Virus record (IMG/VR): IMGVR_UViG_3300032307_000123
Location: 1-49,268 of that record
DNA: 49,268 nt
Direction: 5' to 3' (one strand)
Origin: a virus
Lineage: Duplodnaviria; Caudoviricetes
Under the pieces are notes generated by a model. It did no database searches. It was given only the letters and a program-made list of their open reading frames with translations, and was not told the DNA's origin. Below, one piece after another: positions 330 to 49,011 of the stretch. The translations under genes were made by a program, and so were the position numbers. How positions within the stretch are numbered: position 1 is the stretch's first letter; every line of letters starts with the position of its first letter.

Positions 330-580
330 TATTTTACTCTTCTATAAGGTTTTACTTTTTGTTTAACAGATTTAGGTTGAGCTACAAACTGTTTGCCTTT
401 AGCTTTCCCTTCCCTTTTAGCCTTCGTCGTTGCTGCATATTCTTGAGGGCTTAATGCTTTTATTGCTTTCTCAGGTAAATATCTTTCGCCTGTTTCACTA
501 GACTTTTTGCCTGACTTAGTTCTCCACTTTTGTTCACCCCATGCTTTTAGTGAACGTTGTGGTTTAGCTAATGCACTCAT
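329..580 (-). CDS. Small basic protein, DUF5872-like C-terminal half
   Basis: QRSLKAWGEQKWRTKSGK...RYLPEKAIKALS motif; Lys-rich; translationally coupled to neighbours. Confidence 0.6.
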   Translation of the reverse strand: MSALAKPQRSLKAWGEQKWRTKSGKKSSETGERYLPEKAIKALSPQEYAATTKAKREGKAKGKQFVAQPKSVKQKVKPYRRVK

Positions 581-873
581 TTATATCCGCCACCTGCAGC
601 TTTATATTTCTTAGCAACTAACTGTGCTTTACGAGCTGACCATTGACCAGCGCCTGTACCATGTGTTGCAGCTGCTTTTACTTGAGACACAATTCTTTTA
701 CGTAAACTAGGTTTTGTGTAGTTACCAGCTTTGTTTACTGTGCCACCTTCTTTATACTGAATAAAGTCTGTATTGTCACGACGTTTTTTAACGACACCTT
801 TAGGCATTTTATTTTCTGTTGCACTTGGTATCTTAGTTTTCTTTATAGCACCCATGCCTCTACTTGGTCTCAT
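577..873 (-). CDS. Small basic protein, DUF5872-like N-terminal half
   Basis: NYTKPSLRKRI...GQWSARKAQLVAKKYKAAGGGYK motif; contains YKEGG. Confidence 0.6.
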   Translation of the reverse strand: MRPSRGMGAIKKTKIPSATENKMPKGVVKKRRDNTDFIQYKEGGTVNKAGNYTKPSLRKRIVSQVKAAATHGTGAGQWSARKAQLVAKKYKAAGGGYK

Positions 874-1943
874 TATTTTCTCCTTAGTGTAGCTAATCCA
901 CCTGTTCTAATATTAACAGGTTTGTATTCTTCTGGTCGTCTTGCTTCTGCAGTTGTTGTTGGTGTCGCACTACTTGCTTCTACAGGTCTAAATGTACCCA
1001 TAGTTGCAGTTGTTGCTGGTACCATACTTCGTTCCGCTGGTCCTCTTCTTGGTCCGCCTTCTACAGGTTGGTAAGGACTTGGTGGAGTTACTTGTTCTGG
1101 TGGTTTAACAAAAGCAAATGGGTTAGCCATTTCAGGAGCCGCTTCTTCTGTTGGTGTTGCAAAAGGTTGGAAAAATGGATTATTTTCGCTTCTAGCAAAC
1201 TGAGCTAGTTCATATGCTTTATCTCCACTGCCAAATCCAAAGTCAGCATACTGAATAGGTAAATAACTTGCATTACTTGCTTGTGCTTGTGGCATATATT
1301 CACCATACGCAGACTTAATATCTTCTTGTAAATAGCTTGGTAGATCTGCTCTACCTCCAGCATAAGGTGTAGTAGCTGGGTTAAAATCACCTATTGGTTT
1401 ATATCCACCTGCTTGTTGCGGTGATACTGATAATAAACCTGGTGCAAATGTTTTTTGTAAGTTAGCTTGAGCTAATGGGTCACCTGCCATCTTGCCGTAT
1501 ATATTTTGGTACGCATTAAAACTAGATGTACCTTGTTGTGCTTGTGTTTCTGGGCTATATAAAGTACCTAACTCAGGAAGAACGTTATATACACCTTTAT
1601 TACCTTGTACAAAATACTTAGATGCATCATAAGGTTCCCCACCATAACTATATAAATCTGACCCAAAAGAAAATCCTGGAGGAGGGGCAGTTAAAGCTCC
1701 TGAAGCATCTGTAGATCCATAAGTTGGGATTCCTCCACCACCACCACCGCCACCGCCACCAGAATACCCGCCTGTCAAAGCTGTACCTGCAATAGCTTTA
1801 GCAGCACCTAATGGGCCACCTGTAATATACCCAGCAACGGGACCAGCAATTTTACCAACGCCAGGAATTGCACTAGCAGCAGATGTGACTAGGCTAGCTG
1901 GAGCTGTAACTACTTTAGTAACGGCTTTTGCTGCACCACCCAT
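873..1943 (-). CDS. Low-complexity Gly/Ala/Pro-rich putative virion protein
   Basis: 356 aa ORF in late operon; MGG start, poly-Gly run, C-terminal IRTGGLA. Confidence 0.6.
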   Translation of the reverse strand: MGGAAKAVTKVVTAPASLVTSAASAIPGVGKIAGPVAGYITGGPLGAAKAIAGTALTGGYSGGGGGGGGGGIPTYGSTDASGALTAPPPGFSFGSDLYSYGGEPYDASKYFVQGNKGVYNVLPELGTLYSPETQAQQGTSSFNAYQNIYGKMAGDPLAQANLQKTFAPGLLSVSPQQAGGYKPIGDFNPATTPYAGGRADLPSYLQEDIKSAYGEYMPQAQASNASYLPIQYADFGFGSGDKAYELAQFARSENNPFFQPFATPTEEAAPEMANPFAFVKPPEQVTPPSPYQPVEGGPRRGPAERSMVPATTATMGTFRPVEASSATPTTTAEARRPEEYKPVNIRTGGLATLRRK

Positions 1944-1952
1944 ATTTATTCC

Positions 1953-2207
1953 TTAAATAATACGACCTTTTGTTTTACCTTTTGTAGCACAACCATCTGC
2001 ACGTTTAGAAGCTGAAGATACTGAACCACCAGATTTAAAAACTTTTTTTACTGTGTCTACTATCTTTTTAGGAATAGTTTTTATAGTTTTAACAGTGTCT
2101 TCGTTTTCTTTTGTGTCACGAGTTTTTACATCTTTAGCTGCTTTAGTTACTTTAGCATCTAGTTCTTTTTGTTTTTGCTCATCAAGTAATTCTTGTGGAG
2201 TAGCCAT
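1953..2207 (-). CDS. Small basic putative virion core protein
   Basis: Lys-rich; ends FKSGGSVSSASKRADGCATKGKTKGRII, shared with neighbours. Confidence 0.65.
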   Translation of the reverse strand: MATPQELLDEQKQKELDAKVTKAAKDVKTRDTKENEDTVKTIKTIPKKIVDTVKKVFKSGGSVSSASKRADGCATKGKTKGRII

Positions 2208-2209
2208 AA

Positions 2210-2686
2210 TTAAACTATCCTACCTTTAGTTTTACCTTTAGTAGCAATACCGTCTGCACGTTTAGAAGCAGAAGAAACTTTACCACCTGAAGACATTTTT
2301 TTAGCTTTAACCTTGCCACCTTTTTTCATATTATAACCACGAGATAATAAATTTTGAGCCATTTCCGTAGCAGTAAAATCTCTTGTTGGTTTTTTAACGG
2401 CTTCTTCTTTAATTACTTTAGACATATCAGGACCAATAACATCAGCAGTTCTATCAACACTACCAATATCACCAGAAGGTGTTTCAACAGAAACTTTTTC
2501 TTTAGTAATTTTTTTAACAGGTTTTGTATCAGCTCTAAATTTAGGACCTATTTTTTCATCACTAAAATCAGTACGATTAGCTATTTGACCTTGTTTAGCT
2601 TTAGCTTTAGTAGCAGCTAATCTTGATGGAAAAGAACTTTCTTTCCATTCATCAAGAGTTTTACCTAATATTTTTAATTCAGCCAT
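2210..2686 (-). CDS. Basic putative virion core protein
   Basis: Contains MKKGG; ends MSSGGKVSSASKRADGIATKGKTKGRIV. Confidence 0.65.
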   Translation of the reverse strand: MAELKILGKTLDEWKESSFPSRLAATKAKAKQGQIANRTDFSDEKIGPKFRADTKPVKKITKEKVSVETPSGDIGSVDRTADVIGPDMSKVIKEEAVKKPTRDFTATEMAQNLLSRGYNMKKGGKVKAKKMSSGGKVSSASKRADGIATKGKTKGRIV

Positions 2687-2688
2687 GA

Positions 2689-3240
2689 TTAAATAATCTT
2701 TCCTTTTGATTTACCTTTTTTAGCAATACCATTAGCTTTAGAAAGTTGGCCACCTTTAGAATAACCTTTGCACATACCACCTTTTTTCATGCCGTGCTCT
2801 TTCATTTCTTCTGCTTTAGATTCTTTCTTTTCGTGTTTCATCATAGCAGCTTTAGACTTATATTTCTCGCCTGTACCTTTTTCTATAATGCCACCCTTTT
2901 TCATTTTGTGCATTGATGATTCATGACCTTTAACTTCTTTTTTAGCAATCATTTTTGCATCTGATTTTGTTGCACAACCACCTTTTGCATAGCCTTTAGC
3001 CATACCACCTTTTTTCATGTAGCCCATTTTATTTCTAACCTCCGTTGGTAATTTTGATAATCCAGGATTGTCACTTGAATCAACTGCTTTTAGTGCTCCA
3101 CCTGATCCGAACTTTTTAGTTTTATCTGTTTTCATAAACTCTTCCCCTACTGATTTTGGTATGCCTAATCGTTTTGCAGCTTTTGGATCATTTGCAACTA
3201 ATGCCATCAAGTTATGTTGTTTTTTAGATACGCTTGGCAT
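2689..3240 (-). CDS. Lys-rich protein with repeated xxxGG motifs, putative DNA-condensing core protein
   Basis: MPSVSKKQHNLM start; six hydrophobic-x-x-GG motifs; ends ANGIAKKGKSKGKII. Confidence 0.7.
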   Translation of the reverse strand: MPSVSKKQHNLMALVANDPKAAKRLGIPKSVGEEFMKTDKTKKFGSGGALKAVDSSDNPGLSKLPTEVRNKMGYMKKGGMAKGYAKGGCATKSDAKMIAKKEVKGHESSMHKMKKGGIIEKGTGEKYKSKAAMMKHEKKESKAEEMKEHGMKKGGMCKGYSKGGQLSKANGIAKKGKSKGKII

Positions 3241-3424: not shown

Positions 3425-3643
3425 TTATTTAAACCAATGATTAACCAACCAACTAATAAACATAGAACCTACAGTGGCAATACCAATAAATACTTTCCAT
3501 CCACCTTTGATTTCTTCTAGCGTTTTTTCAATATTATCAAGGCGTTTTTTTAATTGATCCATGTCTTCCATAATAGTATCTACATCCGCTTGAATATGTT
3601 TAATCTCAATACCGTGTTCTGCTAATTCACGTTCTGTACTCAT
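3425..3643 (-). CDS. Coiled-coil protein with C-terminal transmembrane helix (XhlA/holin-like)
   Basis: Heptad-like N-terminus then GWKVFIGIATVGSMFISWLV; start at 3643 overlaps the previous stop (ATGA). Confidence 0.5.
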   Translation of the reverse strand: MSTERELAEHGIEIKHIQADVDTIMEDMDQLKKRLDNIEKTLEEIKGGWKVFIGIATVGSMFISWLVNHWFK

Positions 3644-3903
3644 TTGCAATTCCACCTTTTTAAAGAAGCAGCCTTACGAGTAGGTCTACCTTTTTCATCT
3701 TTCATAGGGCCTGGCATACCAGACATTCTTGCACAAAATGATCTCTTACGAGGTCCACCTTGTGGTTGTGGTGCTTTTAAATTTGATCCTGTAGCTGCGT
3801 TATATTTAGCACGACCTTTAGCGGTAAGACCTGCACCTTTCGATACAGGAAGTTTCTCACCACGTCCGACTGCTAAGCTTGGACCTTTTTTCTTGCTAGC
3901 CAT
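3640..3903 (-). CDS. Small basic protein, DUF6321-like
   Basis: GLTAKGRAKYN...NLKAP...RKRSFCARMSG...SLKRWNC motif. Confidence 0.65.
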   Translation of the reverse strand: MASKKKGPSLAVGRGEKLPVSKGAGLTAKGRAKYNAATGSNLKAPQPQGGPRKRSFCARMSGMPGPMKDEKGRPTRKAASLKRWNCK

Positions 3904-6069: not shown

Positions 6070-6987
6070 TTAAGCAGCGCCTGGTGAACCCCACATACCG
6101 AGAGGATCTGACCAACCGAAGCTGTAACGCTCACGAGCCTTGTAACGAACGTTGCCTGTATCAAAATCGCCATCCATAGATGTAGATAATGGTGTACGGA
6201 CAAAGTGTTTCATGCCGTTAGGTACATCAGTTGTTAAGAAGTAAGCATCTGGATCTGTCAAGAAGTGGTTAATTGTGTAACCTTCTGGGATAGAACCATT
6301 GTTCTTAATCGCGTTGATATCGTTATCAGCAGTAGCAACACGTAATTCAGTTTCGAGCAAGCGAGTTGCAACGAATTGATTACCTGGTGGAACAACTAAT
6401 TTACGAGGTTGAGCAGCGATTAAAAGACCACGCTCATCTGTCCAAGCAGCGATTTGAATAACTGCATTTTCTAATGCTGTTTCGTTCAAATCTGTTGGAG
6501 TTGATTGAGTGTTGCTGTTTGTGCCACCTGAAACAAGTGGATGAGCTGTGTTAAATAATGAAACGCCATCACCGCCGTTGTAAGAACCAGAAGTGTTGAA
6601 GCCATTGTTTAATACTGCAGCTGCTTTAACTTGTTTTGTGTATGCCATAGCGCGAGCTAAAGCTTTTGTGTAACGTGCTGATAATGTGTCATACAAGTTA
6701 TCTTCTACAGCTTCTTCAGTTAAGCTGAAGCCAAGAGCGATAGTTTGATGATTGTATCGAGCAGTCCAAGCTTCTTGAGCATTGTCATAAGCGATAGCTG
6801 TGCCTTCGTTTTTGACTGGTGCTGCTGAGAAACCTGAAAGTTTTGTTTCTTCTTCGAATGAACGTTCTGAAGTTTCTGTTTCGTAAACTTCTTTGTGTTC
6901 TTCGCCATAACGCTTGTACTCTAAACCGAATAGCGCGTTAAGACCTGGTAATAGCTCTTTTAGGAGCTGTGCACGTGAAATAGCCAT
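6070..6987 (-). CDS. Major capsid protein (Mu gpT-like family)
   Basis: MAISRAQLLKELLPGLNALFGLEY start and ARERYSFGWSDP end; 305 aa; strong AAGGAG RBS; position in head module. Confidence 0.9.
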   Translation of the reverse strand: MAISRAQLLKELLPGLNALFGLEYKRYGEEHKEVYETETSERSFEEETKLSGFSAAPVKNEGTAIAYDNAQEAWTARYNHQTIALGFSLTEEAVEDNLYDTLSARYTKALARAMAYTKQVKAAAVLNNGFNTSGSYNGGDGVSLFNTAHPLVSGGTNSNTQSTPTDLNETALENAVIQIAAWTDERGLLIAAQPRKLVVPPGNQFVATRLLETELRVATADNDINAIKNNGSIPEGYTINHFLTDPDAYFLTTDVPNGMKHFVRTPLSTSMDGDFDTGNVRYKARERYSFGWSDPLGMWGSPGAA

Positions 6988-9765: not shown

Positions 9766-12216
9766 TTACTCCTGTGGTTTTTGATTCTGTTCCTTTTCTC
9801 TTAGCTGAAATTCTTTTTTCTTAAATTCAGCATCCATTCCTATTTTAATACCTTGAAGAACTTTATCTGATTCTTCTTTTTGTTTATGTTGTGTAGCTTG
9901 AGCACCTAACTTAGCACCTTCTAATCTTTCATGAGAAGCAATTTTTTCTTTTTCAAGTTCAAGGCGTTGTTGTTCAATAGCAATATCAGCTTCTGTTTTT
10001 TGTTGCTTAATTTGTAAGTCTTGAGCTTTTAATTGCAACTCTTGTTGTTGCATTTGAATCAACGGATCTTGTTGCTGTTGTTGAGCTTGTTGTTGCTGAA
10101 CTTCTGCTTGATCTTTAGCTAATAGTTTTTGTGCTGCAGCTGCAGTCAATCTAGATAATTCTACTTCAACATCTTCAGGTAATGTTTCATCAGGTGTTGG
10201 TAATGGTACACCTAATTGTTCTTCTAATTGTTTTCTATATTCAAACGCAATGTGCTCATTAATATGTGCTAATGCTGCAGCTTGAATATTTTGAGCTTGA
10301 GGATTTTGACTCATCATCTGCATGAGTTTTGGATCTTGCATAGCAGCCATATGAACAGCTAAGTGAGCTTGATGATCTTGATAAATAAACGCTTTAACTG
10401 GTTTCATATTAATGATAGCCATATTTTCTGAAACAGGATCTTTTGGTTTTTGATCTTCAGCTGTTGGTACTAACTTACCAATATTTTTAACCCCTAATAC
10501 TTCTAACATCTGTTTATTTAATTCAACAAGATCATAGATTTGTGGATTAGCTTGAGCCATTTGCATAACTGCTTGATATTGCACAACCTTTTGAGACATG
10601 GTTGCTGCATTTGGATCAGATACTGGAATAACTTCACAGCAATCATAATCAGATTGTTTAGCACGTCTATTACCAATTTCTGGTTCGTATGAATATTCTG
10701 TAGGTGTGTAATCACGAATAATACCAGCTAAAAGTTTGAACTCTTGTTTCATCGCATAGTGAATACGCGCTTGAACTGCTGACATAACTTTTAATGTACG
10801 TTCTAGAATAGCTAATGTTGTACCTACTGGAGAATTAGCACTCATATCAGATACTTTCATATCTGCAGCTGAAGCAAATCTTCTACCTTCTTCAATGATT
10901 TGATTCATTAACTGATTAAGAACTTGTGATGGCTCTTTATAAGGTAGTGGTAAGATGTTATCGCGTATCGCACCTGATGGTACATCTACATCTCTCCATT
11001 CACCTGGAGCAATGGGGGTGTCATCTCCTTTGATACGAAGACCACGAGACTTCATCCCCCCTGGTAGGTTGCTCAATGTTCCTGCATCAACGAGTTGTCG
11101 TAAAATCATTGTGCCTGACTTAGCAAACGCTCCAATCAAGTGGATTAAACCGAAGCAGTAGAATCCAAAACCTGGAATGTAACCGTAATGTACAAAGTGA
11201 TTACGTTTTAATTGTTTTTTATCATCTGGGTTCCAGTTACGTCTTATAGCAAGTATGGTACCTGTACCTTTTTCAATCGTTACAATATATGGTAGTGCTA
11301 TGCCATCTTCTGAATCTCCATTTTCAAGATCCAAATTAACATGCATTTCTAAAATCTTATAGCGATCATCTTCTGTTGGGTTGAAGCCCATCTTCTCAGC
11401 GATTTTCTTTTCAGCTTCATCAACATCTAAGAACGGTTCGCCTAATTCAACATCTCTATAGAACCCTGCCACCATAAGTTTACGTAACTCATTCTTAGTC
11501 TTACGCATGACGTGTGTTACACGCTCAGCTGTTTCTAAGTTTGACGCACCATAAGGTACAACAATATCTTCTGCTGGAACATACATCGATACTTGACGTT
11601 CAAACGATGGATCGTAATAAACTTTCTTAAACGCATTACCAGCTAAACCTAGACCCCATAACATTCTTTCATGCTCAGGTCTGTATTCTGGCATACAGTC
11701 AGTTAACTGATAGTTCATATCATCTTTAACTCGTTCTGCTGCGTCTTCTTTTTCTTTTGTTTGTTTACCAATAATTTGTGTTTTGACTGGACCTGCAGCT
11801 GGGAAAGTTTCCATCATAGTTTCTGCTTGGAACTTAACTAACGCTTCAGTCATGAGTGGATGATACACATTACATGCACCTGGCCAGGGTTCTGTTCTAT
11901 CTTCTACTTTAAGACCTAATAATTCTAAACCATCAACATAAGTGGTCAACCAATCTTTTCTTGAATTAACATCTGCATCAAACTCACCAACAAGATCACC
12001 AGCTAATTCTGTTAACTGGCCTTCATCCATATCTTCTGCTAAGTTGGCATTAAACTCATCGTTTGTTTCTTTACCTGGAGTAATTGTAATCTCCATGCTG
12101 CCGTCATCTAATGTGACAGAGTCTGGATTCTCAATCTCAATGGCAAGCGCAGATTGATCTGCTGCTAACTCTTCTAATCCTTGAGGTGCTTGTGCTATTC
12201 CTTTTTCTATTGCCAT
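9766..12216 (-). CDS. Portal protein
   Basis: 816 aa; follows terL; PWPGACNVYHP and GFGFYCFGLIH motifs; Gln-rich coiled-coil C-terminus. Confidence 0.85.
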   Translation of the reverse strand: MAIEKGIAQAPQGLEELAADQSALAIEIENPDSVTLDDGSMEITITPGKETNDEFNANLAEDMDEGQLTELAGDLVGEFDADVNSRKDWLTTYVDGLELLGLKVEDRTEPWPGACNVYHPLMTEALVKFQAETMMETFPAAGPVKTQIIGKQTKEKEDAAERVKDDMNYQLTDCMPEYRPEHERMLWGLGLAGNAFKKVYYDPSFERQVSMYVPAEDIVVPYGASNLETAERVTHVMRKTKNELRKLMVAGFYRDVELGEPFLDVDEAEKKIAEKMGFNPTEDDRYKILEMHVNLDLENGDSEDGIALPYIVTIEKGTGTILAIRRNWNPDDKKQLKRNHFVHYGYIPGFGFYCFGLIHLIGAFAKSGTMILRQLVDAGTLSNLPGGMKSRGLRIKGDDTPIAPGEWRDVDVPSGAIRDNILPLPYKEPSQVLNQLMNQIIEEGRRFASAADMKVSDMSANSPVGTTLAILERTLKVMSAVQARIHYAMKQEFKLLAGIIRDYTPTEYSYEPEIGNRRAKQSDYDCCEVIPVSDPNAATMSQKVVQYQAVMQMAQANPQIYDLVELNKQMLEVLGVKNIGKLVPTAEDQKPKDPVSENMAIINMKPVKAFIYQDHQAHLAVHMAAMQDPKLMQMMSQNPQAQNIQAAALAHINEHIAFEYRKQLEEQLGVPLPTPDETLPEDVEVELSRLTAAAAQKLLAKDQAEVQQQQAQQQQQDPLIQMQQQELQLKAQDLQIKQQKTEADIAIEQQRLELEKEKIASHERLEGAKLGAQATQHKQKEESDKVLQGIKIGMDAEFKKKEFQLREKEQNQKPQE

Positions 12217-15831: not shown

Positions 15832-15853
15832 ACTAAGTTAACTTAGTTAACTC

Positions 15854-15891
15854 AAGGCCTGAACGATTAACTTCGTTCGGGCCTTTTTTTT
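15854..15891 (+). terminator. Rho-independent terminator
   Basis: GGCCTGAACGA/TCGTTCGGGCC stem followed by T8. Confidence 0.85.
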
Positions 15892-15899
15892 CGTCCAAA

Positions 15900-16660: not shown

Positions 16661-16688
16661 TGACATAGTCCATTCCTTGTGCTATAAT
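16660..16688 (+). promoter_or_regulatory. Consensus sigma70 early promoter
   Basis: TTGACA-17 bp-TATAAT with TG extended -10. Confidence 0.9.
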
Positions 16689-16737
16689 GATTGAGTTACG
16701 TTGATATTTATCTATGTTTTGCATGGTCTATATTGAC

Positions 16738-22300: not shown

Positions 22301-22308
22301 GAGATAAC

Positions 22309-38292: not shown

Positions 38293-38476
38293 CGGCGTAG
38301 ATTATCAGATAGATTGGCCTGCCTTTGTACCAGGCTCGTCTATCTTTATACCTGCTATTGATACAGAATCAGCTATTAAAGCTATACAAAAAGAAAGTGA
38401 ACGACTAGAGTTTCAGTACGTTCACAAAATTGTTATAGAAGATGGAGTAAAAGGTGTTAGAGTTTGGCGATTATAA
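38282..38476 (+). CDS. Small hypothetical protein
   Basis: WPAFVPGSSIFIP...GVRVWR; GTG start; converges on the large gene at TTATAA. Confidence 0.6.
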   Translation: MLTNGVDYQIDWPAFVPGSSIFIPAIDTESAIKAIQKESERLEFQYVHKIVIEDGVKGVRVWRL

Positions 38477-41400
38477 GCCAGCTTCTTTTCTTACTTTTTG
38501 AATATATTTAGCTTGCCCACCCTTAAATTCTTCTAGGTGATCAAGCATGTTAACTTCTTCTTGTCTAATAAACCTAATTTTTTGTTGTTTTTCATCAGGT
38601 GACATATATTTATCTTCAAGAACAGAGCGTTCCATTCTTCTAAGTTGAGATAAGTATTTACCTAAATCATCAATCAATCCTTTTCTGACGATTAATTCAC
38701 GTTTATTATCTTTCTCTAAATAAGCTTGAGTTTCTTCAGGTCCTCTAAATTGTTGCTTATCTTTATAAGTAGCATAGGCACGATCTACTTCATCTCTTAA
38801 TTCATAGTAATCATTTTTAGCACGAGTACCAAATTCTTTAGCTATAAAGGCTGAAGTACCAGGTAACTCTGAAATGTAATCTTGAACTGATTTAGAAGGT
38901 AATATATCACCTCTCATATCTGCCATCATAGGATTAGTAGCCATTCTAATTAAGCCTGCAGTATAACCTAAATAGCCATCTAAGAAGTGATCCCACTTCA
39001 TAGGAGAAGTACCTGTGTAATCACCCAATACTTTAGCTAGTTCAGATGTTCTTGCAGTGTATTGCATTTCTTCATCTTTACCTGCTACACCTGTACCAGC
39101 AATAGGTCTACCTGTAAACATATCATAGTTATAAGCTAACTCACCAACAGTTTTTAAGGCTTGAGGATAAGGTGAAGGTCCTGTAACTGCATTAGCTAAT
39201 GCACCGCCTAATGATTTCCACATCTTAGTTGCATCTTCATCTTCTTTAATAAATCTATGATACACATGTTCAGGAATTACTTTTGTTATTAATGATGCTA
39301 AATCAGGACGTACAGGAATACTCATACCACCTGTACCAGGGAATACAAATCTTCTATCACGAATTGATGGATCTAGTTTTTCATAATCGTCATCATCAGC
39401 AGTTAACGCAGCATAGAAGAAGCTTAATATCATAGTCTTCATCATAGTGTTTCTTAAAACTTTATATGCTTCAGCTCTTTGAGAAGGTGCAATACCTCTA
39501 CCTGTAGCTATTTTCATCATGACATTCATAGATTGTAAGTAAGCACCAAAGAACGTAATGACTTGACGACCTACTGATACTAACTTATTAGAACCTGTAC
39601 GTCTAAAGTTAATAACTTCAAAGGCACGCTCTGTAGCTAAGGCTTTATCCCCTGTTTCTTTCATTGTCTGTGCATAGATAGCTTGACGAATGACATTATC
39701 AGAAGCCATAGAGAATTTTTGTAAGGGGTTTTTAATATAGCGATCAAAGAAGCCAGGTTTCTTCATACCTGCAGCTATCTCTGCATCTAGTTTACTTACT
39801 TCAGCTGAGTAATCTCTAATACCTACAGCACCTACACTCTTTAATTGTTTTCTAGCTTCGCTTACCCCTGTTGATGTTTTAATAATTTCTTTCATAACTT
39901 CTAATGGTATGCCAAATGGATTTTGAACACCTGAAGTAACCATCGCACTATACGCATCTTGGAATACTTGAGATACAGAGAAGAGTGGGTAAAGTACAAT
40001 GTTTTGTCTTAAGATGTTTGCAATCTTAGCTAGTTTAGGGAACATAGGTAAGGCAACTGTTTCCATACCAGTAAATGCTTTAACAAACAATGGATCATTA
40101 AATTTGTATTTAGTAAGCCCACCATTTTGCCAGATAGCAATAGTGTTTTCTCTAGGACTTGATACACCTGAAGGTATCTTAGTTACTTCATCTTCTAAAT
40201 AAGTATCCGCTGCTTTAACTAAATTTTGTGCAGTTTTATTGTTGATACCTTTTCTGATAACATAGGTAATCCATCGTTCCATGTTATCAAATACGTTATT
40301 AACAGGTTGATTGCTACCTTTAAATTTAGGATCAGTTAACGCTCTATCTAATAAACCACGTGTATATTCTTTAGGGCCTTCTTTTTGTTCTATTTGTTCT
40401 ACACGATAGAACGGCACATAGTCCATTACATCTAATAGTGCTTCTATTTGATCTTCAGAATATAGACCAGAGTCAACACCAAATTTTAATACTTTTGCAC
40501 GAATGCCATTCCATTGATCTACTATCTTATTTAATTCAGGTATCTCATCAAATAATTTAAGACCAGCATTGATTTCTTTTGTAGTCATGTGGATATGTTT
40601 ATAGTTGTTATCCCACATACGTTTAGCTTCTTTATCTTTGCCTTCAACTAATAAGTCAACTACATCTTCTTTCAATTCTCTGTTGTAGTCTTTTAGACCT
40701 TTTAATCGTTGTGCAATCATAGCTACGTGTGCATACTGTTCCATCTTTTCATAAGGAACACCATACTTATCTGCTAAAGTCTTTACAGTCTGCATCATAG
40801 ACTTCCAGCTATCTTTAGCTTTACTTACCACATATTTACTTAATGTTGGATCATAAGCAATATTGCCATCTTCTAAAAACTGATGAGCAGGTGCTTCAGC
40901 ATGTAATGCTTGAGAAGTACTAATAGAATACATAACTTTCTTAGTTTCATCCCATGATTTATCTTCTTCTAAACCACGCCTAATCGCATTACTTAACGCT
41001 GCATCTGATGAGAAGAAATTAGTTTCGGCTTTGTCTAAGAAACGTTGGAATCCTTTCATTTTGTTTTTGGCAAACTGTGCAGGATCATCTTTAAATTCTT
41101 GGAACGCTTTTGTTTCTTCAGCTTTCTCTGTTTTAATATTAGTATCTTTAACTAGTTTATCTAGACGATCTACTTTTTCTCTTGAATATAGTTTTTCTTG
41201 AGGACCAAATTCAGGAATAGTAGCAGTACCTATTTGACGTGTGCCTGTAAATAAGTCAGGCGTTACACTAATAATGTCACTTAATAGGGTGTTAGATATA
41301 TCACCTAAGTTTAATAGTTGTTTAACGGAGTTAACAAAGTCTGACCATAAGGTACTTGTTGGAGGAGCGTCAGGTATAACACTTCGTTCACCTGCTAAGA

Positions 41401-44400
41401 ATTTTTGGAAGGCTTCATTGTTATATGCATTCGCAATAAACTCATCCATGTTTAGGAAAGCTTCACCAAAGTCTAGTTCTTGTTGCATAGCAGCTACTTC
41501 AGCTGCATCAAATATATCCACCATTTTTTGACCTTGTGGTGTACGTGCTATAGGTCTACCATTCTTCATGGTAACGTGTTTTTTTAATTCTATTGTAGTG
41601 GCACTATGTGTCGCTTCGTGGAATATTGTATCTACACCTGCATCAGGACTAATAGTAGTTTTATTTTGAAGTGGTGCATATGAACCATATTCACCTTTCT
41701 CCATACCCATAACTTTATAGGTACCTTTAACTACGTTAGGTAGTTTAGATATAACATTGAGTAATACTTTTTGAACAGGGTTTAATTTATCAAAGTGTTG
41801 ATTCTTTAATATAGTTAAGGCTTGACCTAGTGTTTTAGCAGGCTTAGTTGTGTTAACAATTGCCTTACCTTCAGGCGTGCCTTCTAAGGTTGATTGTAAA
41901 GAGTCAATAGTAGATTTAACTTGTGCAGCATTAAAAGCAACAATCTCACTTAATTCACCATTTTTATATTGAACAATACCATCGTATCCTTGTTTTTGAG
42001 CACGAGACATAACTTCTTTAGATATGTAACCTTTTTCTTCATAAGCTTTTTCAACTATATCAGCTGCTTTTTCTTCAGCTACACCTAGTTGAATAAGAGC
42101 TTGAATCATAGGATCACCCTTACCCATTTCAGTATATATAACTAATGGGTTTTTAATATTAGTTATTACAGGAAGAACATTTCCGCCCTCTGCTTCAGCA
42201 TACCTACTAGCAAAAGCAGGATCAGGAGTTAAGTAAATTCCAGCACCTAACGAACCATCTTTACTTGATCTTAAATTCTTTACATCTTTATTAGTACCAT
42301 GATAGAGTTTTAAAGGAGCTCCTGTATCATCAATTAGTTTAGAGCCTTCAAACCACTGAGTTAATTCAGGTGAAAGTACACGACTAAATAATTTATCTTC
42401 TCGACCCTCAAGAAACTCATCTTGCAAATCTTTAACTTCTTCTTCAGGTAATGTTTTAAGAGCACCCTCTGCTTTAGAAATCTTTTTACCTTCTGCTTCA
42501 AGTGCTTTCTTCTCTTGAGGTGTCATCTTAACTTTAAACTCATCATAGAGATTACTTAAAGTTATATAGTCACGTGCTTGTTGATTTAATTCTGCACGTT
42601 CAGTATCAATGACGTTAGGATTTCTTAAATCTTCTATGAGGTATCTTGGAGGATCTTTGAGTGCTGATAATACATTAGATAAGTTTCTAGACTGCTTAAC
42701 AACAGGCAGTGTAGGTGATACTTTCTTAGCAAGTGCTTTTAGTTTAGATTCATATTTGGAATATTCAGTAGCCGCTGTATCTTTAAGCATCTGAATATAT
42801 CGTGTTCTAGCTTCATAACGTAAGTTAGGATTAGGATCATTGAGTAACTCTATTGTAGATAGGAGTCTTTCACGTCCTTGTGGTTGTGTAGGTTTAGCTA
42901 GAGCTTCTTCACCTTTTAAAACTTCTGTAGCTTGAGGTGCTAGTGGAGCTGGCTTTCGCTTTGTTCCTGCAATAGGTTGTCCAGCATCACTCCGAGTAGT
43001 GTCCACTCCTGCAAGCTCACGTCCTTCAACTCTTCCGGCGTCTTCACGTACTCGTTTGGATTCATCAAGTGCTCGAACGCGAGCTCTATCTGCTTCACTT
43101 CTAGTTTTAAGTTGTATGGGTTTTCCACCTTCAGTCTCCTTTTCGGGTGTTGGCTGTTTAGCTAATTCTACCACAGGTGGTAGAGAGGCTTTATAATTTG
43201 CAAATGCTTCTTCGTTTACTTTTGTAGGGTTATTTTCGGCAACTTGATCAAGCAGTGTACGAGTTTCTTCCGTAGATATATCTTTGCCTATTAATGCTTT
43301 AAATGCATTAGTAGATTTTCTGAATCCCAACGAAGTTAACGTAGCTTCATCGAGTATACTTGAAGGCTCCATCTCTTCTTCAATAGGTTCAGCAATAGGT
43401 TTAGCTTTTGCTTGTAATCGCTTAGCCTTGATAGTTTCGGCTTGATCTTTGATTTGATCGAACAGACCCGCTTTAACATCTTCACGACTAGGTTGTTTAG
43501 CAACTGTATCTTCTATGTCATCGCTTAGTACTTTATCTTTAGCTTTGTTAACTTCTTTGATTTCATTAGTAACTGATTTAACTTCTTTATATTTATTGTA
43601 TGCGCCAGCTGCACCACCAAGACCTGAACCCACTGCTAATGCACCCCATCCAGCTTCAAAGTATTCTCTGTTAGCTTCGTCACCACTTAGTGATAAACCT
43701 GCTTGATAACGTTCAGCAGCTTGCTCTAATACTTCAGTAGGTACTTCAGAGATACCTTTAATCGCACCGACACCAGCACCTTTAGCAACTTGTAAACCTT
43801 TTCTTTCTGCAAGTTCTTTAACAACTGCTTCACCTGCTTTTACTCCACCTTTACCTAAACCTAAAGTAAATCTATCAACTACATAACCTAATGGTGCAGT
43901 AATAGCTGCCCATGTCTTAGCTTTAACAGGATCTAATTCTTGAGGAGCATTTTTTTCTAGTGCTTGACGTTCCATAAAGTGTCCATATTGTTGAACACCA
44001 TAAGTACCAATACCAACAGCAGCACCAATAAAAGGAGCAGCAATACCTGTTGGAGCAGCTAATGCCGTAGCAGCGTAACCTGTTAATAAAGGCACTGCCA
44101 TTTCAGGACCTGACTTAAGAATTTGTTCTACAATATATGAAGGTACTTTCATACCTGCAGGGAGAATACCTTTTTCTTCGGCAATACGTTGAATATCAGC
44201 GGCAGATAAAGTTTGAACTGCTGGAGGTTGTTGACCTGTTGCTTTAATTTCTTGCATTTTAGCAGCTGCAGCTGCCATGTCTTGATCAGTAGCAGCGCTA
44301 CCTAATTCTATACCACGTTTAACTCCACCAAAAGATTCAATACCTTCTGTTAAAGCTTGTTTAGCTCTAGCAAAAAAACCCGCATCTTCAGGTTTAGTTT

Positions 44401-44548
44401 CGGTTGTAACAGTGGGAGATATACCTAACTCTTCAGGTGTGAATTCTTTTTTGACTGCTGTGGTAGAAGATAAACCTAATTCTTCAGGTGTAAATTCCTG
44501 TGGTGTACTAGGAAGCCCTAGTTCTTCAGGTGTGAATTCTTGCGCCAT
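38471..44548 (-). CDS. Large polyvalent/ejection protein (ART-like domain, metallopeptidase, LPD38-like C-terminus)
   Basis: 2025 aa; LYHGT...GIYLT...GYDGI...EIVAF (ART-like); IFHEATH...EFIA (zincin); C-terminal NYDMFTGRPI...GYLG. Confidence 0.75.
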   Translation of the reverse strand: MAQEFTPEELGLPSTPQEFTPEELGLSSTTAVKKEFTPEELGISPTVTTETKPEDAGFFARAKQALTEGIESFGGVKRGIELGSAATDQDMAAAAAKMQEIKATGQQPPAVQTLSAADIQRIAEEKGILPAGMKVPSYIVEQILKSGPEMAVPLLTGYAATALAAPTGIAAPFIGAAVGIGTYGVQQYGHFMERQALEKNAPQELDPVKAKTWAAITAPLGYVVDRFTLGLGKGGVKAGEAVVKELAERKGLQVAKGAGVGAIKGISEVPTEVLEQAAERYQAGLSLSGDEANREYFEAGWGALAVGSGLGGAAGAYNKYKEVKSVTNEIKEVNKAKDKVLSDDIEDTVAKQPSREDVKAGLFDQIKDQAETIKAKRLQAKAKPIAEPIEEEMEPSSILDEATLTSLGFRKSTNAFKALIGKDISTEETRTLLDQVAENNPTKVNEEAFANYKASLPPVVELAKQPTPEKETEGGKPIQLKTRSEADRARVRALDESKRVREDAGRVEGRELAGVDTTRSDAGQPIAGTKRKPAPLAPQATEVLKGEEALAKPTQPQGRERLLSTIELLNDPNPNLRYEARTRYIQMLKDTAATEYSKYESKLKALAKKVSPTLPVVKQSRNLSNVLSALKDPPRYLIEDLRNPNVIDTERAELNQQARDYITLSNLYDEFKVKMTPQEKKALEAEGKKISKAEGALKTLPEEEVKDLQDEFLEGREDKLFSRVLSPELTQWFEGSKLIDDTGAPLKLYHGTNKDVKNLRSSKDGSLGAGIYLTPDPAFASRYAEAEGGNVLPVITNIKNPLVIYTEMGKGDPMIQALIQLGVAEEKAADIVEKAYEEKGYISKEVMSRAQKQGYDGIVQYKNGELSEIVAFNAAQVKSTIDSLQSTLEGTPEGKAIVNTTKPAKTLGQALTILKNQHFDKLNPVQKVLLNVISKLPNVVKGTYKVMGMEKGEYGSYAPLQNKTTISPDAGVDTIFHEATHSATTIELKKHVTMKNGRPIARTPQGQKMVDIFDAAEVAAMQQELDFGEAFLNMDEFIANAYNNEAFQKFLAGERSVIPDAPPTSTLWSDFVNSVKQLLNLGDISNTLLSDIISVTPDLFTGTRQIGTATIPEFGPQEKLYSREKVDRLDKLVKDTNIKTEKAEETKAFQEFKDDPAQFAKNKMKGFQRFLDKAETNFFSSDAALSNAIRRGLEEDKSWDETKKVMYSISTSQALHAEAPAHQFLEDGNIAYDPTLSKYVVSKAKDSWKSMMQTVKTLADKYGVPYEKMEQYAHVAMIAQRLKGLKDYNRELKEDVVDLLVEGKDKEAKRMWDNNYKHIHMTTKEINAGLKLFDEIPELNKIVDQWNGIRAKVLKFGVDSGLYSEDQIEALLDVMDYVPFYRVEQIEQKEGPKEYTRGLLDRALTDPKFKGSNQPVNNVFDNMERWITYVIRKGINNKTAQNLVKAADTYLEDEVTKIPSGVSSPRENTIAIWQNGGLTKYKFNDPLFVKAFTGMETVALPMFPKLAKIANILRQNIVLYPLFSVSQVFQDAYSAMVTSGVQNPFGIPLEVMKEIIKTSTGVSEARKQLKSVGAVGIRDYSAEVSKLDAEIAAGMKKPGFFDRYIKNPLQKFSMASDNVIRQAIYAQTMKETGDKALATERAFEVINFRRTGSNKLVSVGRQVITFFGAYLQSMNVMMKIATGRGIAPSQRAEAYKVLRNTMMKTMILSFFYAALTADDDDYEKLDPSIRDRRFVFPGTGGMSIPVRPDLASLITKVIPEHVYHRFIKEDEDATKMWKSLGGALANAVTGPSPYPQALKTVGELAYNYDMFTGRPIAGTGVAGKDEEMQYTARTSELAKVLGDYTGTSPMKWDHFLDGYLGYTAGLIRMATNPMMADMRGDILPSKSVQDYISELPGTSAFIAKEFGTRAKNDYYELRDEVDRAYATYKDKQQFRGPEETQAYLEKDNKRELIVRKGLIDDLGKYLSQLRRMERSVLEDKYMSPDEKQQKIRFIRQEEVNMLDHLEEFKGGQAKYIQKVRKEAGL

Positions 44549-44549: not shown

Positions 44550-45815
44550 TTAAGTTATTTTTTCGTAGTTCCCATTAGGAAGTTTTCTAAAAGTACCTTT
44601 ACCTGGAACAGTTACAGTACCATCAGGATTAGTTATAGGACCATTCATAGCAGGCGCAGCGGGTTTTGTAGCTGTAGCAGTTGGACCAAATGCACCTTCA
44701 GTATCACCCATAAGAAGCTTTAGATTCTTTTCAAAGTATTGTTTTTTAACAAGTGATTCTTTAGCTGCACCATCAGGACCTGAGAACTCAACTTTTCTAG
44801 CAGCATCTGGGTAATCTTTTTCGAATTCTTTTTGAGCATTATCTTTTGCTTTGTCAAATATTTCGTAAGCTTTACCTGATTTATCTGCACGTGCTTTGTA
44901 TCCTGCAATGCGAACAGATGTTTCAAGTTCAGCATTTTTAAGACCGATTTCAGTATTAATTTTATCTCTATCGTCAATAGCTTTCATAGCTGCAGAAGCA
45001 TCACCACGTGCTTGAGCTTGTTGAGCTTCAAGAGTTTTTCTATCAGCCATTTTGTACATGCTGTTAATTTCTCTTTGAGTTTTACCCATAGAACCAATAA
45101 TAGAACCTGCTTTTTCACCACCCTTTGCTAATGCTCCACCAAAAGTAGGAGTTCCTGCAAAAGCACTTCCGTAAGTTAATAGTAATTGAGCAACATCCAT
45201 TTTTTTAGCGTCTTCTAATTCTTTGAGTCTTTCTTCTTTACTTTCTGCTAAAGTCTTTTTATAAAATTCTGGATCAACACCTAATTGTTGTTGAGCTTGT
45301 TGTTGTCTAATTATATAGTCATCAAGAGTTATACTTTCTCTAGGTTTCATTAAAGCTGCTTGTGCATCTTTATAATAGCTAGGATCATATTTAAATGGAT
45401 CAGTATATGATGGACCACCATAAGCATAATGTTTAACTGGACCGCCATCATCAAATGCTACAATACCACCAGTAGCATAATTGTTTTCATCATACATATC
45501 ACCAGTATCAAGATCAGCTAGACCACCTTGTGCCATAGCTTGCATGGGCATTTCTGGTGGAGGAGCCATAGCTTCCATCATAGGTTGAGCTTCAGGTAAT
45601 GCAGAAATACCTGGTTGTGCTTCTTGAACTAAATCTTCAGCTACAGTTTTTTCTTCAGGTTTATTAGCTTGATAACTATTACGCATTTCTTTTCTGCGTT
45701 GTAATTCACTTAAAGCTAAATAAGTAGGTACTTGTCCTGTAGGATTTTGTACATATCCTACTAGTGTATCGTCTGGAACACCTTTTAACTGATTTTGTAT
45801 TTTAATAATATTCAT
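44550..45815 (-). CDS. Internal virion/ejection protein
   Basis: Gln/Ala-rich helical protein; MAQGG, YATGG, FDDGG, YAYGG motifs. Confidence 0.65.
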   Translation of the reverse strand: MNIIKIQNQLKGVPDDTLVGYVQNPTGQVPTYLALSELQRRKEMRNSYQANKPEEKTVAEDLVQEAQPGISALPEAQPMMEAMAPPPEMPMQAMAQGGLADLDTGDMYDENNYATGGIVAFDDGGPVKHYAYGGPSYTDPFKYDPSYYKDAQAALMKPRESITLDDYIIRQQQAQQQLGVDPEFYKKTLAESKEERLKELEDAKKMDVAQLLLTYGSAFAGTPTFGGALAKGGEKAGSIIGSMGKTQREINSMYKMADRKTLEAQQAQARGDASAAMKAIDDRDKINTEIGLKNAELETSVRIAGYKARADKSGKAYEIFDKAKDNAQKEFEKDYPDAARKVEFSGPDGAAKESLVKKQYFEKNLKLLMGDTEGAFGPTATATKPAAPAMNGPITNPDGTVTVPGKGTFRKLPNGNYEKIT

Positions 45816-45818: not shown

Positions 45819-46928
45819 TTATCCTAGAGCTTTCATTAAACCAAGTGCTCCTAATCCACCACCAAGCAATTGTTGAGCACCGGAAGCTTGAGGGGCATAT
45901 TGAACTTGTGTTTGAGCCAAACCAGGCATACCACGAAGCATTGCATTGTAGAACTCGAGTTGTTTCTTTTCCCAATCTCTTTGTTCCATAGCAGTTTGAT
46001 ATTGGATGTCGTCGATTTTTTGTTGTAAATCTTGTTTTTCTTTTTCGGTAGCAGCTTGTGCTTGAAGTCTTTGTAAGTTTGCAGTTTGTTCTGCAGCTGC
46101 TGTAACTGCTTGTTCGTGAGAAGCTTGAAGTCCTGCTTGTAATCCACTAACACCTGTTTGACCTGCAAGTTGTGCTGCAGCTTGTTCAGCAGCCACGTTA
46201 GCTTGTTGTGCTTGTAATGCACGAGCAGCATCTTCACCATACATTTTTTGAGCAGATTCATAAGCAGCTTGTTGACCTTTAGTATAAACATCAGCAATAT
46301 TTTGTTGCAAACCACGTTCTTGTTCAGCCTGCATTAAAGCTTGACGTGCACCACCAAATGATCCTCTACCAATAGCACCCATAGCACCTTGTGCTTTAGC
46401 AATATCACCTTGACGTCTTAATTCACGAGCTGCAATATCAGAAACATTAGTTGCATATGGAGACATATAGTAGGACGCTGCAGCGGGACTAAATGTGCCT
46501 GTAGAAATGCCTCTAGGGGTATAACCTAATGCTCTTGTTAAACCGGCACCAGCTGTGCCATAACCTAAACCTGAACCCATACCTAAACCTGATCTTGCAT
46601 CAGCAAACCCACCAGGTTGTGTAAGCCCAGCAATTTCTCTTTGTATACCTACTTGACCTGGGGTGAATCCTGCAACTCTTTCGCCTGTATAAGTAGGCAT
46701 TGGTTTAAGGCCTGTAACTTCTCCTGATGGACCTGTAGTAAATACATTCTTAGCAGACTCCACCATTGCCTGTTCAAAGAAAGGCTTTGCATACTCTGGT
46801 AAGTTAGAAGTATAAGTAGTGCCTTTATAAGTTTGTCCACCCCCATCACTACCACCCCACAAAGTTAAAAAAGTATCCATAATCCAAACAGGATTAAGGA
46901 ACCATTTAAAGCCATCTAATATTTTCAT
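45819..46928 (-). CDS. Internal virion/DNA pilot-type ejection protein
   Basis: YMSPY...GSFGGARQ; Gln/Ala-rich; Gly-rich hydrophobic C-terminus. Confidence 0.65.
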   Translation of the reverse strand: MKILDGFKWFLNPVWIMDTFLTLWGGSDGGGQTYKGTTYTSNLPEYAKPFFEQAMVESAKNVFTTGPSGEVTGLKPMPTYTGERVAGFTPGQVGIQREIAGLTQPGGFADARSGLGMGSGLGYGTAGAGLTRALGYTPRGISTGTFSPAAASYYMSPYATNVSDIAARELRRQGDIAKAQGAMGAIGRGSFGGARQALMQAEQERGLQQNIADVYTKGQQAAYESAQKMYGEDAARALQAQQANVAAEQAAAQLAGQTGVSGLQAGLQASHEQAVTAAAEQTANLQRLQAQAATEKEKQDLQQKIDDIQYQTAMEQRDWEKKQLEFYNAMLRGMPGLAQTQVQYAPQASGAQQLLGGGLGALGLMKALG

Positions 46929-47338
46929 ATGTTTTTCTCCACTACGTGTGCTACAGATTGAAAGCCCATTTTTATTTTATAAAGTCTAGCTTGTGCATCT
47001 TGTGCAAAAGCTCTTATCTTCGTGACACCTTGTGATTTAGCCCAAGCTTCAAATTGCTTGATTAAATCAGGTTCTATTAATGCTCTACCTCCCATAGATG
47101 TAATATGTAAAACTCTATGATTAGGATAGTTACTAATAGATACTGCAGATGCTCCTATAATACTACCATCATCTTCTACTGCAACAAGACATATCTGTTG
47201 CCCATTAACTAATAAAAACTTTATTTGATCAACGCTATAATCATCAGTACTAAATTTAAATGACGTTTCAAAAAAAGGTTCTATTTTGTTCCAATACTGA
47301 TTTATAAAATCAGGTGCTACTATGTTAATTTGTCTCAT
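46925..47338 (-). CDS. Putative GNAT-fold acyltransferase in the ejection module
   Basis: LHITSMGG...FEAWAKSQGVTKI...ARLY..MGF pattern. Confidence 0.55.
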   Translation of the reverse strand: MRQINIVAPDFINQYWNKIEPFFETSFKFSTDDYSVDQIKFLLVNGQQICLVAVEDDGSIIGASAVSISNYPNHRVLHITSMGGRALIEPDLIKQFEAWAKSQGVTKIRAFAQDAQARLYKIKMGFQSVAHVVEKNI

Positions 47339-49011
47339 GCAGGCATGTATTTTCGTGGTTTAATTTCTTTACCTTGTTTAGTATGACCTGTTCTTGCTTT
47401 TCTAATACGGTCTAACATTGAAGATAATTGTTTAGATCCTGCTTTAGATGAACCATTACCAAGATGACTTACCACATCAGCAGGAATAACAAATTCACCG
47501 TCAGCTAAACGAGCTGGTTGTTTACCTTCTATTGTAGCAGGAATTGAATCACTCATACCATCACCATGACCATCTAAATATCCACCTTTAGCAGCTTCTA
47601 ATGCAAATGTGCCTTTATCAGTACCTTTAGTTGCCATGTAATCTTTAGATGCTTGAGGGAACATACCCGGTGCATTTAATGGATCTATTGTTGTAGGGGT
47701 AACCGGAATTTTAGCAGCGGGCGCAGCTGTAGTTGGAGTTGATTTATTCATAATAGTATTAAGTAAAGCAGGATTACGTCCGAAAAGTACAGCAAGTAAA
47801 CCCATAGGACCAAGAGTATCTAAACCAAGAGTATTTAAAGAACTTTGGCTAACTACGGGATCATTATAACCTGGTATATAAATATGAGAACTGCCACCTT
47901 CTGCAAAAGCAACTGGACCCCCAGCAGCGTAGAATGAATCCGCAGCTTTAGCACGAGAACCTTCAGCAGCTAATGTATTTAATCTACCAATACCATAACC
48001 ATCTCTACTTAAATTTTGTGTACCTGTTGTTTGGTCATTTGTACCATATAAATCTTGAATGCCACCTGATGAAATAGTACTTGAATTATTATTAACAGTT
48101 CCACCCGTTGCCATCAATCTTAAACCTGGAGAAGCTTGAGCTAAATTAAGTCTACCTGTAATTGGGTCTCTATATTTGTTTTCTTCCGCTTTTCGTTTGT
48201 CTTCTAATGATGTATCTAATTCAGGGTATAAATCTTCTTGTGCTCCCGCTAAACCTGCCATAGCTAATGGAGCACCCAGTTGCATAGCTGAACCTCCAGC
48301 GTTTTCAAATGCTTGCCAATTACCTACAGGATTACTAAGTAGTTTACCTGCTCCAGTCATTACGCTATCTAATCCGCCTTTAGCACCTGAGGCTACGGTT
48401 GAAGGAAGTTGACCTGCTAATACATTAGTACTAGGTAAATTAGGAACTAAACTAGTCGCAAACTGATCTGTAGCTAAAGGGGCCTTCATACCTACGTCTT
48501 TAGCTAATTGAACGCCGGGTTGAACACTTCCAATATTTTTAATACCTTGTCCCGCTGCTTGATCAAGAACTACATTAGATGATGCAGGGGAAATGCCGCC
48601 CCCTAATCCGGCTAGTGAACTACCTAAATTTCCACCACCATAACCACCAAGACCTCCCATCAAACCACCCATTAAAGGATCTTCACCTTTAGCACCTGCA
48701 ACCGCAGCACCAGCTGCCATACCTCCTAATACCGGAGCGGCAGTAGCTGACATACCTGTTAAACCTAATGAAGCGCCTCCCGTAGCTGGAGATAACGCAA
48801 CACCCACAAGAGTCGGGATAAGAGAAGTAAAGAAGTCACCAAAGTCAAAGGCTTCAGGCATACCTGTATGAGGATTAGTATGTAGTTTGTGACCCGTCAT
48901 AGCTCCAACGGCTTTTAATCCCGCTACTTCAGAAGGGCTAACGTGCATAAGCATGGAGTCACCATGTCTACCGAGGGAGGCTAAGCCTTTAGCTAGTTGA
49001 TGTGTTGCCAT
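47335..49011 (-). CDS. Internal virion protein with Gly-rich membrane-like segments and a C-terminal SDSIPA/GEFV domain
   Basis: N-terminal GRHGDSMLMH...NPHTGMPE; five xxxGG motifs; GDGMSDSIPA...LADGEFVIPADVVS. Confidence 0.7.
   Translation of the reverse strand: MATHQLAKGLASLGRHGDSMLMHVSPSEVAGLKAVGAMTGHKLHTNPHTGMPEAFDFGDFFTSLIPTLVGVALSPATGGASLGLTGMSATAAPVLGGMAAGAAVAGAKGEDPLMGGLMGGLGGYGGGNLGSSLAGLGGGISPASSNVVLDQAAGQGIKNIGSVQPGVQLAKDVGMKAPLATDQFATSLVPNLPSTNVLAGQLPSTVASGAKGGLDSVMTGAGKLLSNPVGNWQAFENAGGSAMQLGAPLAMAGLAGAQEDLYPELDTSLEDKRKAEENKYRDPITGRLNLAQASPGLRLMATGGTVNNNSSTISSGGIQDLYGTNDQTTGTQNLSRDGYGIGRLNTLAAEGSRAKAADSFYAAGGPVAFAEGGSSHIYIPGYNDPVVSQSSLNTLGLDTLGPMGLLAVLFGRNPALLNTIMNKSTPTTAAPAAKIPVTPTTIDPLNAPGMFPQASKDYMATKGTDKGTFALEAAKGGYLDGHGDGMSDSIPATIEGKQPARLADGEFVIPADVVSHLGNGSSKAGSKQLSSMLDRIRKARTGHTKQGKEIKPRKYMPA

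Follow-up and report, generated by a model that had tools for sequence, protein, structure and literature searches.

Unrelated internal proteins of bacteriophage T4 carry a short N-terminal capsid-targeting sequence that is cut after Glu by the prohead protease gp21, and adenovirus protease (adenain) and Ulp1-type enzymes recognize sites in basic core proteins where a di-glycine follows a hydrophobic residue, cutting after the GG. In addition, the title of a 1973 article by Zweig and Cummings reportedly names a part played by the host in cleaving a T5 tail protein. How podophages choose and mature the proteins that they pack is largely open. Here we analyzed the record IMGVR_UViG_3300032307_000123, a stretch of 49,268 nucleotides of Caudoviricetes DNA considered at its full length (the window), in which a hydrophobic-x-x-G-G motif recurs in putative virion proteins. 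Among related processing systems (statements on cited articles, here and below, refer to the available portions of their text), the tape-measure protein pb2 of T5 is cut after R1127 according to mass spectrometry (PMC10038345), and lambda gpH is cleaved at a site and by a catalyst that are stated to be unknown, with a small fragment of about 14 kDa (PMC12617516). In P22, gp7 is matured by the host enzyme OpdA to a K-G-G-K-G start, and cargo is recruited by the scaffold (PMC8402733).

An earlier note on this DNA had listed 20 motif pentapeptides in seven open reading frames (ORFs). All 20 were found at the places claimed, on the minus strand, and 17 have V, I, L, M or Y in one of the two residues after the GG, in agreement with its claim of a hydrophobic residue soon afterwards. 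Three of them (IRTGG, ISSGG and AAKGG) depart from the family consensus, [YFM]-A-x-G-G-x-[VIL]. The seven proteins had been described as dissimilar, which does not hold for the 84-, 158- and 183-aa ORFs, where a common basic C-terminal module comes after the motif; likewise, in what had been called a basic-protein cluster, the 98-, 84-, 158- and 183-aa ORFs are basic whereas the 356-aa ORF is not (K+R 7%).

The seven ORFs, which were picked after the fact, contain 22 copies of [FYMI]xxGG, versus 3.8 in full shuffles or 5.7 with Gly fixed, and none of 2000 shuffles was as high. Without picking, the 28 minus-strand ORFs of the window hold 24 motifs versus 8.8 upon shuffling (0/300 shuffles as high), and the 41 plus-strand ORFs hold 4 versus 3.6 (144/300). 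Gene by gene, the 183-aa ORF alone survives Bonferroni correction over the 69 ORFs (p 0.017); single genes being mostly non-significant, the case rests on relatives. These were examined in 168 loci, in which motif density is 4-21 per 1000 residues in six of the gene families; the family-wide test covers these six, the remaining family, that of the 356-aa ORF, having fewer than three relatives in the loci. The excess persists upon dereplication below 60% identity, where observed and expected numbers of [FYM]xxGG were 6 and 1.0 for the 98-aa family (present in 6/6 representatives), 24 and 4.8 for the 84-aa (17/26), 19 and 1.8 for the 158-aa (12/12), 42 and 8.5 for the 183-aa (12/13), 81 and 16.2 for the 421-aa (35/39) and 213 and 61.2 for the 558-aa family (53/55), 119 cluster representatives of the latter giving 418 motifs against 119 expected. 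As controls, scaffold (0 of 37 representatives) and the 151-aa head protein (0 of 14) lack [FYM]xxGG, and a 207-aa protein carries 6 versus 7.3 expected; there are no sites in 51 portal sequences and one in 76 capsid sequences, rows that are near-identical, so that the apparent depletion there is not independent evidence. The motif also occurs in the matching genes of HTVC023P and Yong1. Comparison of late with early ORFs and with relatives, as the earlier note had proposed, thus showed an excess in late ORFs and in six gene families: the motif is shared, selected and confined to those families.

Of 460 distinct sites, which were chosen by [FYM]xxGG, 41% start with Y, 31% with F and 27% with M; Ala comes next in 63%, and Val stands two places past the GG in 38%. 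Tyr is 15-fold enriched ahead of A-x-G-G (142/313), conserved residues lie on both sides of the GG, and copies, of which a protein has between 1 and 7, are kept in spacers that are otherwise unalignable. All four Gly codons are used at the motif, and this codon use rules out an origin as a DNA repeat; internal start codons are ruled out as well, since Tyr and Phe make up 72% of sites. The motif starts within the first 6 residues at 7 of 634 sites, and is thus not N-terminal in the manner of the T4 signal. A separate occurrence, FRQGG-FI, opens the C-terminal tail of the large terminase (12304-12318, minus strand) and could be a motif copy or chance; it is kept in 28 of 29 close relatives and is not found in HTVC023P, Yong1 or CRP-901.

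The motif truly marks the place where cassettes that can be swapped are joined. Across 22 orthologs of the 98-aa ORF, a single N-module continues, exactly from the motif on, into one of five C-cassettes (found in 13, 6, 1, 1 and 1 orthologs); identity of the N-module is 0.69 across different cassettes versus 0.68 within the same one, and that of the C-cassettes is 0.21 across types versus 0.68 within. The basic C-terminal module of the 84-, 158- and 183-aa ORFs follows a motif in 42 of 50 related ORFs. Residues 1-43 of the 183-aa ORF (3112-3240, minus strand) match a small phiKZ-like jumbo-phage protein, and the matches stop at the first motif; the best 30 among 71 records, which come mostly from phiKZ-like jumbo phages, show 65-67% identity. 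On the capsid tree, which is poorly resolved, C-cassettes are unclustered (7 changes versus 6.4 shuffled; 20 of 22 genes), and whole-gene exchange fits this as well. Alignment ends also pile up at the motif, but were set aside because the motif itself anchors the alignments. The motif is structural to how its genes evolve. As a side observation, a virion protein family of 845 columns is also matched, at its N-terminus, by residues 1-43 of the 183-aa ORF.

A conserved Glu-containing module of 85 residues (Glu module), overlooked in the earlier note, starts with the last motif of the 558-aa ORF and links the motif to tape-measure proteins. Among 8000 matches, the best 120 keep the module at 86-100% identity in proteins whose lengths and middles vary, and it has relatives in 10,061 clusters at E<=0.001 (50%-cluster level). 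The window sequence alone gave weak tape-measure matches (PHROG 3547, E 0.002). Against the PDB, lambda was matched at E 0.02, and comparison of the module profile with lambda gpH 726-790 by hhalign reached 95% (E 3e-8, 57 columns), indicating homology over the motif, the Gly-rich loop, the Glu strand and the helix. This lambda segment is bracketed by FATGG at 733 and YATGG at 778. In the tape-measure class of the module (class A), collected with a search pattern that contained neither motif nor Glu, a GG lies upstream in 88 of 119 loci, 85 times at one fixed distance and with Ala in 73 of the 88, and a second motif lies downstream in 47 of 78 loci. The Glu is invariant in 83/83 A2 rows, though it was outside the search pattern. 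At the place of the second, closing motif the window has a degenerate KQGKEI, and RW gp066 a full YMDGG. A third module form (class C) is homologous at 95%, and the podophage module, with two insertions, forms its own branch relative to the tape-measure forms; the matches to the JBD30 and Douge tape measures are partly circular, the profile having included pattern-selected tape-measure rows. Among six reference phages, all but Yong1 being partial stretches, the module was found in HTVC023P, Yong1, RW and DSL-LC04 and not in CRP-901 or QDWS535. Thus, the Glu module combines extreme conservation and an invariant Glu with motifs on both sides in its tape-measure homologs.

Pfam gave no family for the Glu module. 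Two AlphaFold models (predicted local distance difference test, pLDDT, 70.2, and 79.4 for a relative, L421) gave 0 Foldseek matches at E<=0.001, and VIA a best Z of 2.9 for one and none at Z>=2 for the other, a null from which neither novelty nor difference follows. In 60 of 121 other loci, the N-terminal module of the 558-aa ORF comes after a motif; that this N-terminal module is a paralog of the Glu module, as an Asp to Glu spacing of 10 had suggested by eye, was not established (hhalign 0.2%; 98.9th percentile in an ungapped test). No description of the motif or the module was found in the literature within search reach, which excluded most subscription papers and the lambda and T5 papers of the 1970s-80s, and a term search of the available text of the HTVC023P-type genome paper gave no passage on the motif (PMC9599517).

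The register of a possible cut comes from T5. The pb2 sequence at the measured site is R|AEGGMM, which puts the cut ahead of Ala and yields the 92 residues that had been reported. In the tape-measure class of this site (class B), whose loci were found by a pattern without the motif, [RK]-A-x-G-G-x-hydrophobic lies upstream in 84 of 116 loci, and the class profile matches pb2 1119-1173 (E 3e-5, among 9 targets). T5-type and window modules have in common x-A-x-G-G-x-hydrophobic at a fixed distance ahead of a conserved Glu, with Ala constant across classes and the preceding residue class-specific, as expected if the cut falls before Ala. A lambda cut at F733|ATGG would yield 79.8 and 12.5 kDa, compared to the fragment of about 14 kDa reported. 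The portal-bound segment of crAss001 gp45 begins at residue 425 in cryo-electron microscopy (PMC10172136), a residue that coincides with the Ala in N-A-F-G-G. The connection with crAss is weak (Atlas score 0.85; Glu window at the 99.7th percentile), and in the fold comparison the module models (pLDDT 70, 79) gave no Foldseek or VIA match. Of the papers on JBD30 and Douge (PMC11445458, PMC13033339), the former proposes a tape-measure cut at R1066 from a protease-site predictor, and the latter does not mention cleavage in its available text; the DT57C paper infers tape-measure cleavage, with no site given in its available part.

The explanation that we favor, at somewhat less than even odds, is that the motif likely docks on the Glu module and that a cut then likely follows its first residue, ahead of the Ala. 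Judging by gene position in the ejection cassette and the late cluster, the 558- and 421-aa proteins and the small basic proteins would enter the procapsid, where the cargo motifs would engage the Glu module in trans, just as those flanking the module itself would do in cis. The bond before Ala, chosen because of the analogy with pb2, would be hydrolyzed to give new A-x-G-G N-termini, freed ejection domains and short Lys-rich peptides, and the basic peptides may neutralize packaged DNA. Catalysis by the Glu module itself is the weakest step of this proposal, and it is rather doubtful that the module represents a new minimal peptidase family cutting x|A-x-G-G in cis and in trans.

Several observations weigh against a cut by or on this module. 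A module of 85 residues with one Glu has no recognized catalytic set, and upstream GG is absent from 31 of 119 class A copies. Beyond the motif, no homology was detected between the T5 and window modules (hhalign 0.3%; class A versus B 2.4%), and the P1 residue in T5 is Arg, not Tyr, Phe or Met. The large ejection protein of QDWS535 has five [FYM]xxGG sites and no detectable module in that partial stretch. With regard to crAss001, gp45 is modeled as one uncut chain, with no mention of cleavage in the available text (PMC10172136), and the start of the model can simply be an order boundary; PF25725 (crAss_CARG1) has no window match at E<=10, and hhalign of gp45 with the window module gave 0.2-0.6%. 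Finally, tandem motifs spaced by 8-9 residues (86/348 gaps) and motifs placed 7-12 residues ahead of the C-terminus, as in gp83 of HTVC023P and gp066 of Caulobacter phage RW, would equally suit a binding tag.

It is quite possible, and nearly as likely as the reading with a cut, that the motif is an uncut docking tag: as a short turn or strand, it would attach to the Glu module, the scaffold or the portal and so collect cargo in the procapsid. No bond would then be broken in podophages, cutting being peculiar to some tape measures. Besides the C-terminal and tandem copies, this would account for motifs on both sides of the module in lambda, RW and the 47 class A loci, and is consistent with a low-confidence model that sets a small hairpin on the second motif, with gp45 modeled intact and portal-bound (PMC10172136) and with the P22 scaffold that recruits cargo (PMC8402733). 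It fits less well with a T5 cut that falls inside the motif, with gp45 density that begins at the same register, and with the stand-alone-like cassettes on either side, which suggest units meant to separate. What stands of the shared processing or targeting signal proposed in the earlier note, under either reading, is a shared, selected signal in likely head cargo, given the family enrichment, the use of all Gly codons and the cassette swapping.

A cut before Ala could also be made by another enzyme, the Glu module merely binding, but this appears unlikely. The scan of 28 late and 14 early ORFs revealed no classical prohead protease, as had been noted, though three HExxH motifs occur, in a SprT-like gene, in a DUF2201 gene and at residue 977 of the 2025-aa polyvalent protein. 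The latter domain, or a host peptidase, would be the candidate: HExxH is present in 25 of 40 large relatives of the polyvalent protein, and P22 gp7 is matured by a host enzyme (PMC8402733). However, 15 of the 40 lack HExxH in their available part (some are incomplete), and motif and module occur together in tape measures from phages and hosts that are unrelated. A further gene, the conserved 151-aa head protein, has no family in Atlas and is a possible hidden protease. The 369-aa ejection gene carries a leader that recalls P22: GG lies within the first 40 residues in 70 of 77 relatives, and this leader-GG differs from the internal motif and counts as a second signal.

It is improbable that the motif is a neutral seam that nothing reads, distributed as a flexible linker or recombination hot spot through the shuffling of genes. 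Cassettes do swap at the motif, and its copy number does vary from protein to protein; nevertheless, the use of all Gly codons, the Tyr enrichment ahead of A-x-G-G and the persistence of copies in otherwise unalignable spacers argue against such a seam. Adenain/Ulp1-type processing by a cysteine protease cutting after GG, the analogy drawn in the earlier note from the (M/I/L)xGG|x sites and the small basic proteins, is very improbable, since the spacing differs (hydrophobic-x-x-GG), conserved residues flank the GG on both sides, the sole measured cut that we found at such a motif, that of T5, falls three residues earlier and makes a cut after GG the wrong register, and Pfam and PHROG gave no clan-CE cysteine protease in the 42 scanned ORFs of this ~78% complete record (27 small early ORFs and the relatives' tail block being outside the scan).

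From its capsid and its head and ejection gene set, the phage is an HTVC023P-like podophage. Its major capsid protein is 72% identical to that of Yong1/MinM2 and 64% to that of pelagiphage HTVC023P, and the order GroES, scaffold, 151-aa gene, capsid is common to HTVC023P and Yong1, both of which also have the module gene. This capsid type was found in roughly 17,000 stored viral stretches, and a sequence search revealed no PDB relative of capsid or portal. The virion block lies on the minus strand at both ends of the window, with terminase, portal, GroES-like, likely scaffold and capsid genes at one end and the DNA ejection, GNAT and polyvalent protein genes at the other; polymerase A, helicase, primase-like and nuclease genes occupy the plus strand (early). 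The record is linear, and the tail block between the two ends, visible in relatives, is missing. Feature coordinates are given in Table 1.

Table 1. Coordinates of motif-bearing ORFs, modules and neighboring genes in the window.
Feature	Position	Strand	Remarks
98-aa basic ORF	577..873	-	N-module, YKEGG (742-756), swappable C-cassette; PHROG 17747 match from residue 41
356-aa Gly/Pro-rich ORF	873..1943	-	not basic; IRTGG (897-911) near C-terminus
84-aa basic ORF	1953..2207	-	FKSGG (2025-2039), then shared basic C-terminal module
158-aa basic ORF	2210..2686	-	MKKGG (2315-2329), MSSGG (2282-2296), shared C-terminal module
183-aa basic ORF	2689..3240	-	motifs 3097-3111, 3004-3018, 2977-2991, 2890-2904, 2776-2790, 2749-2763
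Basic DUF6321 gene	3640-3903	-	domain match
Major capsid protein	6070..6987	-	no motif (context)
Conserved 151-aa gene	7651-8106	-	between scaffold and capsid genes; no named family
GroES-like gene	9129-9599	-	within head cluster; common to HTVC023P, Yong1, CRP-901, RW, QDWS535
Portal	9766..12216	-	no motif; candidate anchor (context)
2025-aa polyvalent protein	38471..44548	-	ejection cassette; ART-PolyVal (740-883), HExxH 977, LPD38 (1719-1877); not motif-enriched
421-aa likely ejection protein	44550..45815	-	four motifs clustered, residues 94-134 (45414-45536)
369-aa DNA ejection protein	45819..46928	-	PHROG 4287, E 6e-7; ~24-residue hydrophobic leader, then GG run
GNAT acetyltransferase	46925..47338	-	directly after module gene; follows it in 53/86 loci
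558-aa likely cargo protein	47335..49011	-	motifs 48100-48114, 48061-48075, 47917-47931, 47893-47907, 47581-47595
Glu module, 85 aa	47335..47595	-	residues 473-558, Glu506; candidate motif reader; homologous to lambda gpH 726-790
N-terminal module of 558-aa ORF	48832..49005	-	residues 3-60; E 9e-14

Some neighboring features are of separate interest. New Ala N-termini, if formed, could speculatively be substrates of the GNAT enzyme. The DUF6321 domain ends much longer proteins in several PHROG families, and in HTVC023P gp43, which is similar to the window DUF6321 gene, a motif stands just ahead of the domain. An AAA ATPase adjoins the DUF2201 metallopeptidase-VWA gene (21254-23752, plus strand), and about 880 bases near the start of the early block (15832-16713) have no ORF of at least 60 aa. 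Three records of 65,014 bases with equal capsid score (OQ594354, OL906435 and PP438419) are attributed to three different cyanobacterial hosts, and these host labels are possibly doubtful.

If a cut takes place, one motif and one 85-aa module would predict cleavage at F733|A734 in lambda, with Glu755, at N424|A425 in crAss001, and at F1019|A1020 in JBD30 rather than at the predictor-based R1066. Were the module indeed a minimal peptidase, it would supply the catalyst that is missing for lambda gpH cleavage, and in abundant podophages without a prohead protease it would serve as the maturation enzyme, by which the products of cassette-built cargo genes become DNA-condensing peptides and ejection proteins. 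Cut or tag, either outcome would amount to a transferable signal with which proteins could be loaded into phage heads.

Compared to described systems, T5 pb2 is similar in having x-A-x-G-G-x-hydrophobic followed by a small Glu-containing module, with a cut measured before Ala, but it is a tail protein with one site and Arg at P1, whereas the window has many copies in likely head cargo. The tape measures of lambda (gpH), JBD30 and Douge carry a homologous, motif-bracketed module, near which lambda gpH is cleaved; in the available descriptions of their structures this module is not resolved (PMC12617516, PMC11445458, PMC13033339). P22 gp7 is cut one residue ahead of GG, which removes an N-terminal leader, and thus resembles the 369-aa ORF and not the internal motif. 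Resembling the window proteins, themselves likely head cargo, crAss001 gp45 (PF25725) is head cargo with about ten xxxGG sites, a portal-bound domain that starts at the motif Ala and a similar Glu strand, but homology is not established and, in the available text, its authors describe neither motif nor cleavage (PMC10172136). Adenovirus and Ulp1-type sites have another spacing and require a clan-CE protease, of which none was found in the scanned window ORFs. The T4 system, as proposed for the window, places a short shared signal on unrelated internal proteins, one that targets and is then cut, although the T4 signal is N-terminal and is served by a prohead protease, none of which was found in the scanned window ORFs. 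The motif is very probably not that of the adenain system nor, by present tests, that of the crAss cargo family; what it resembles is the target-then-cut signal of T4 and the maturation of tape-measure proteins.

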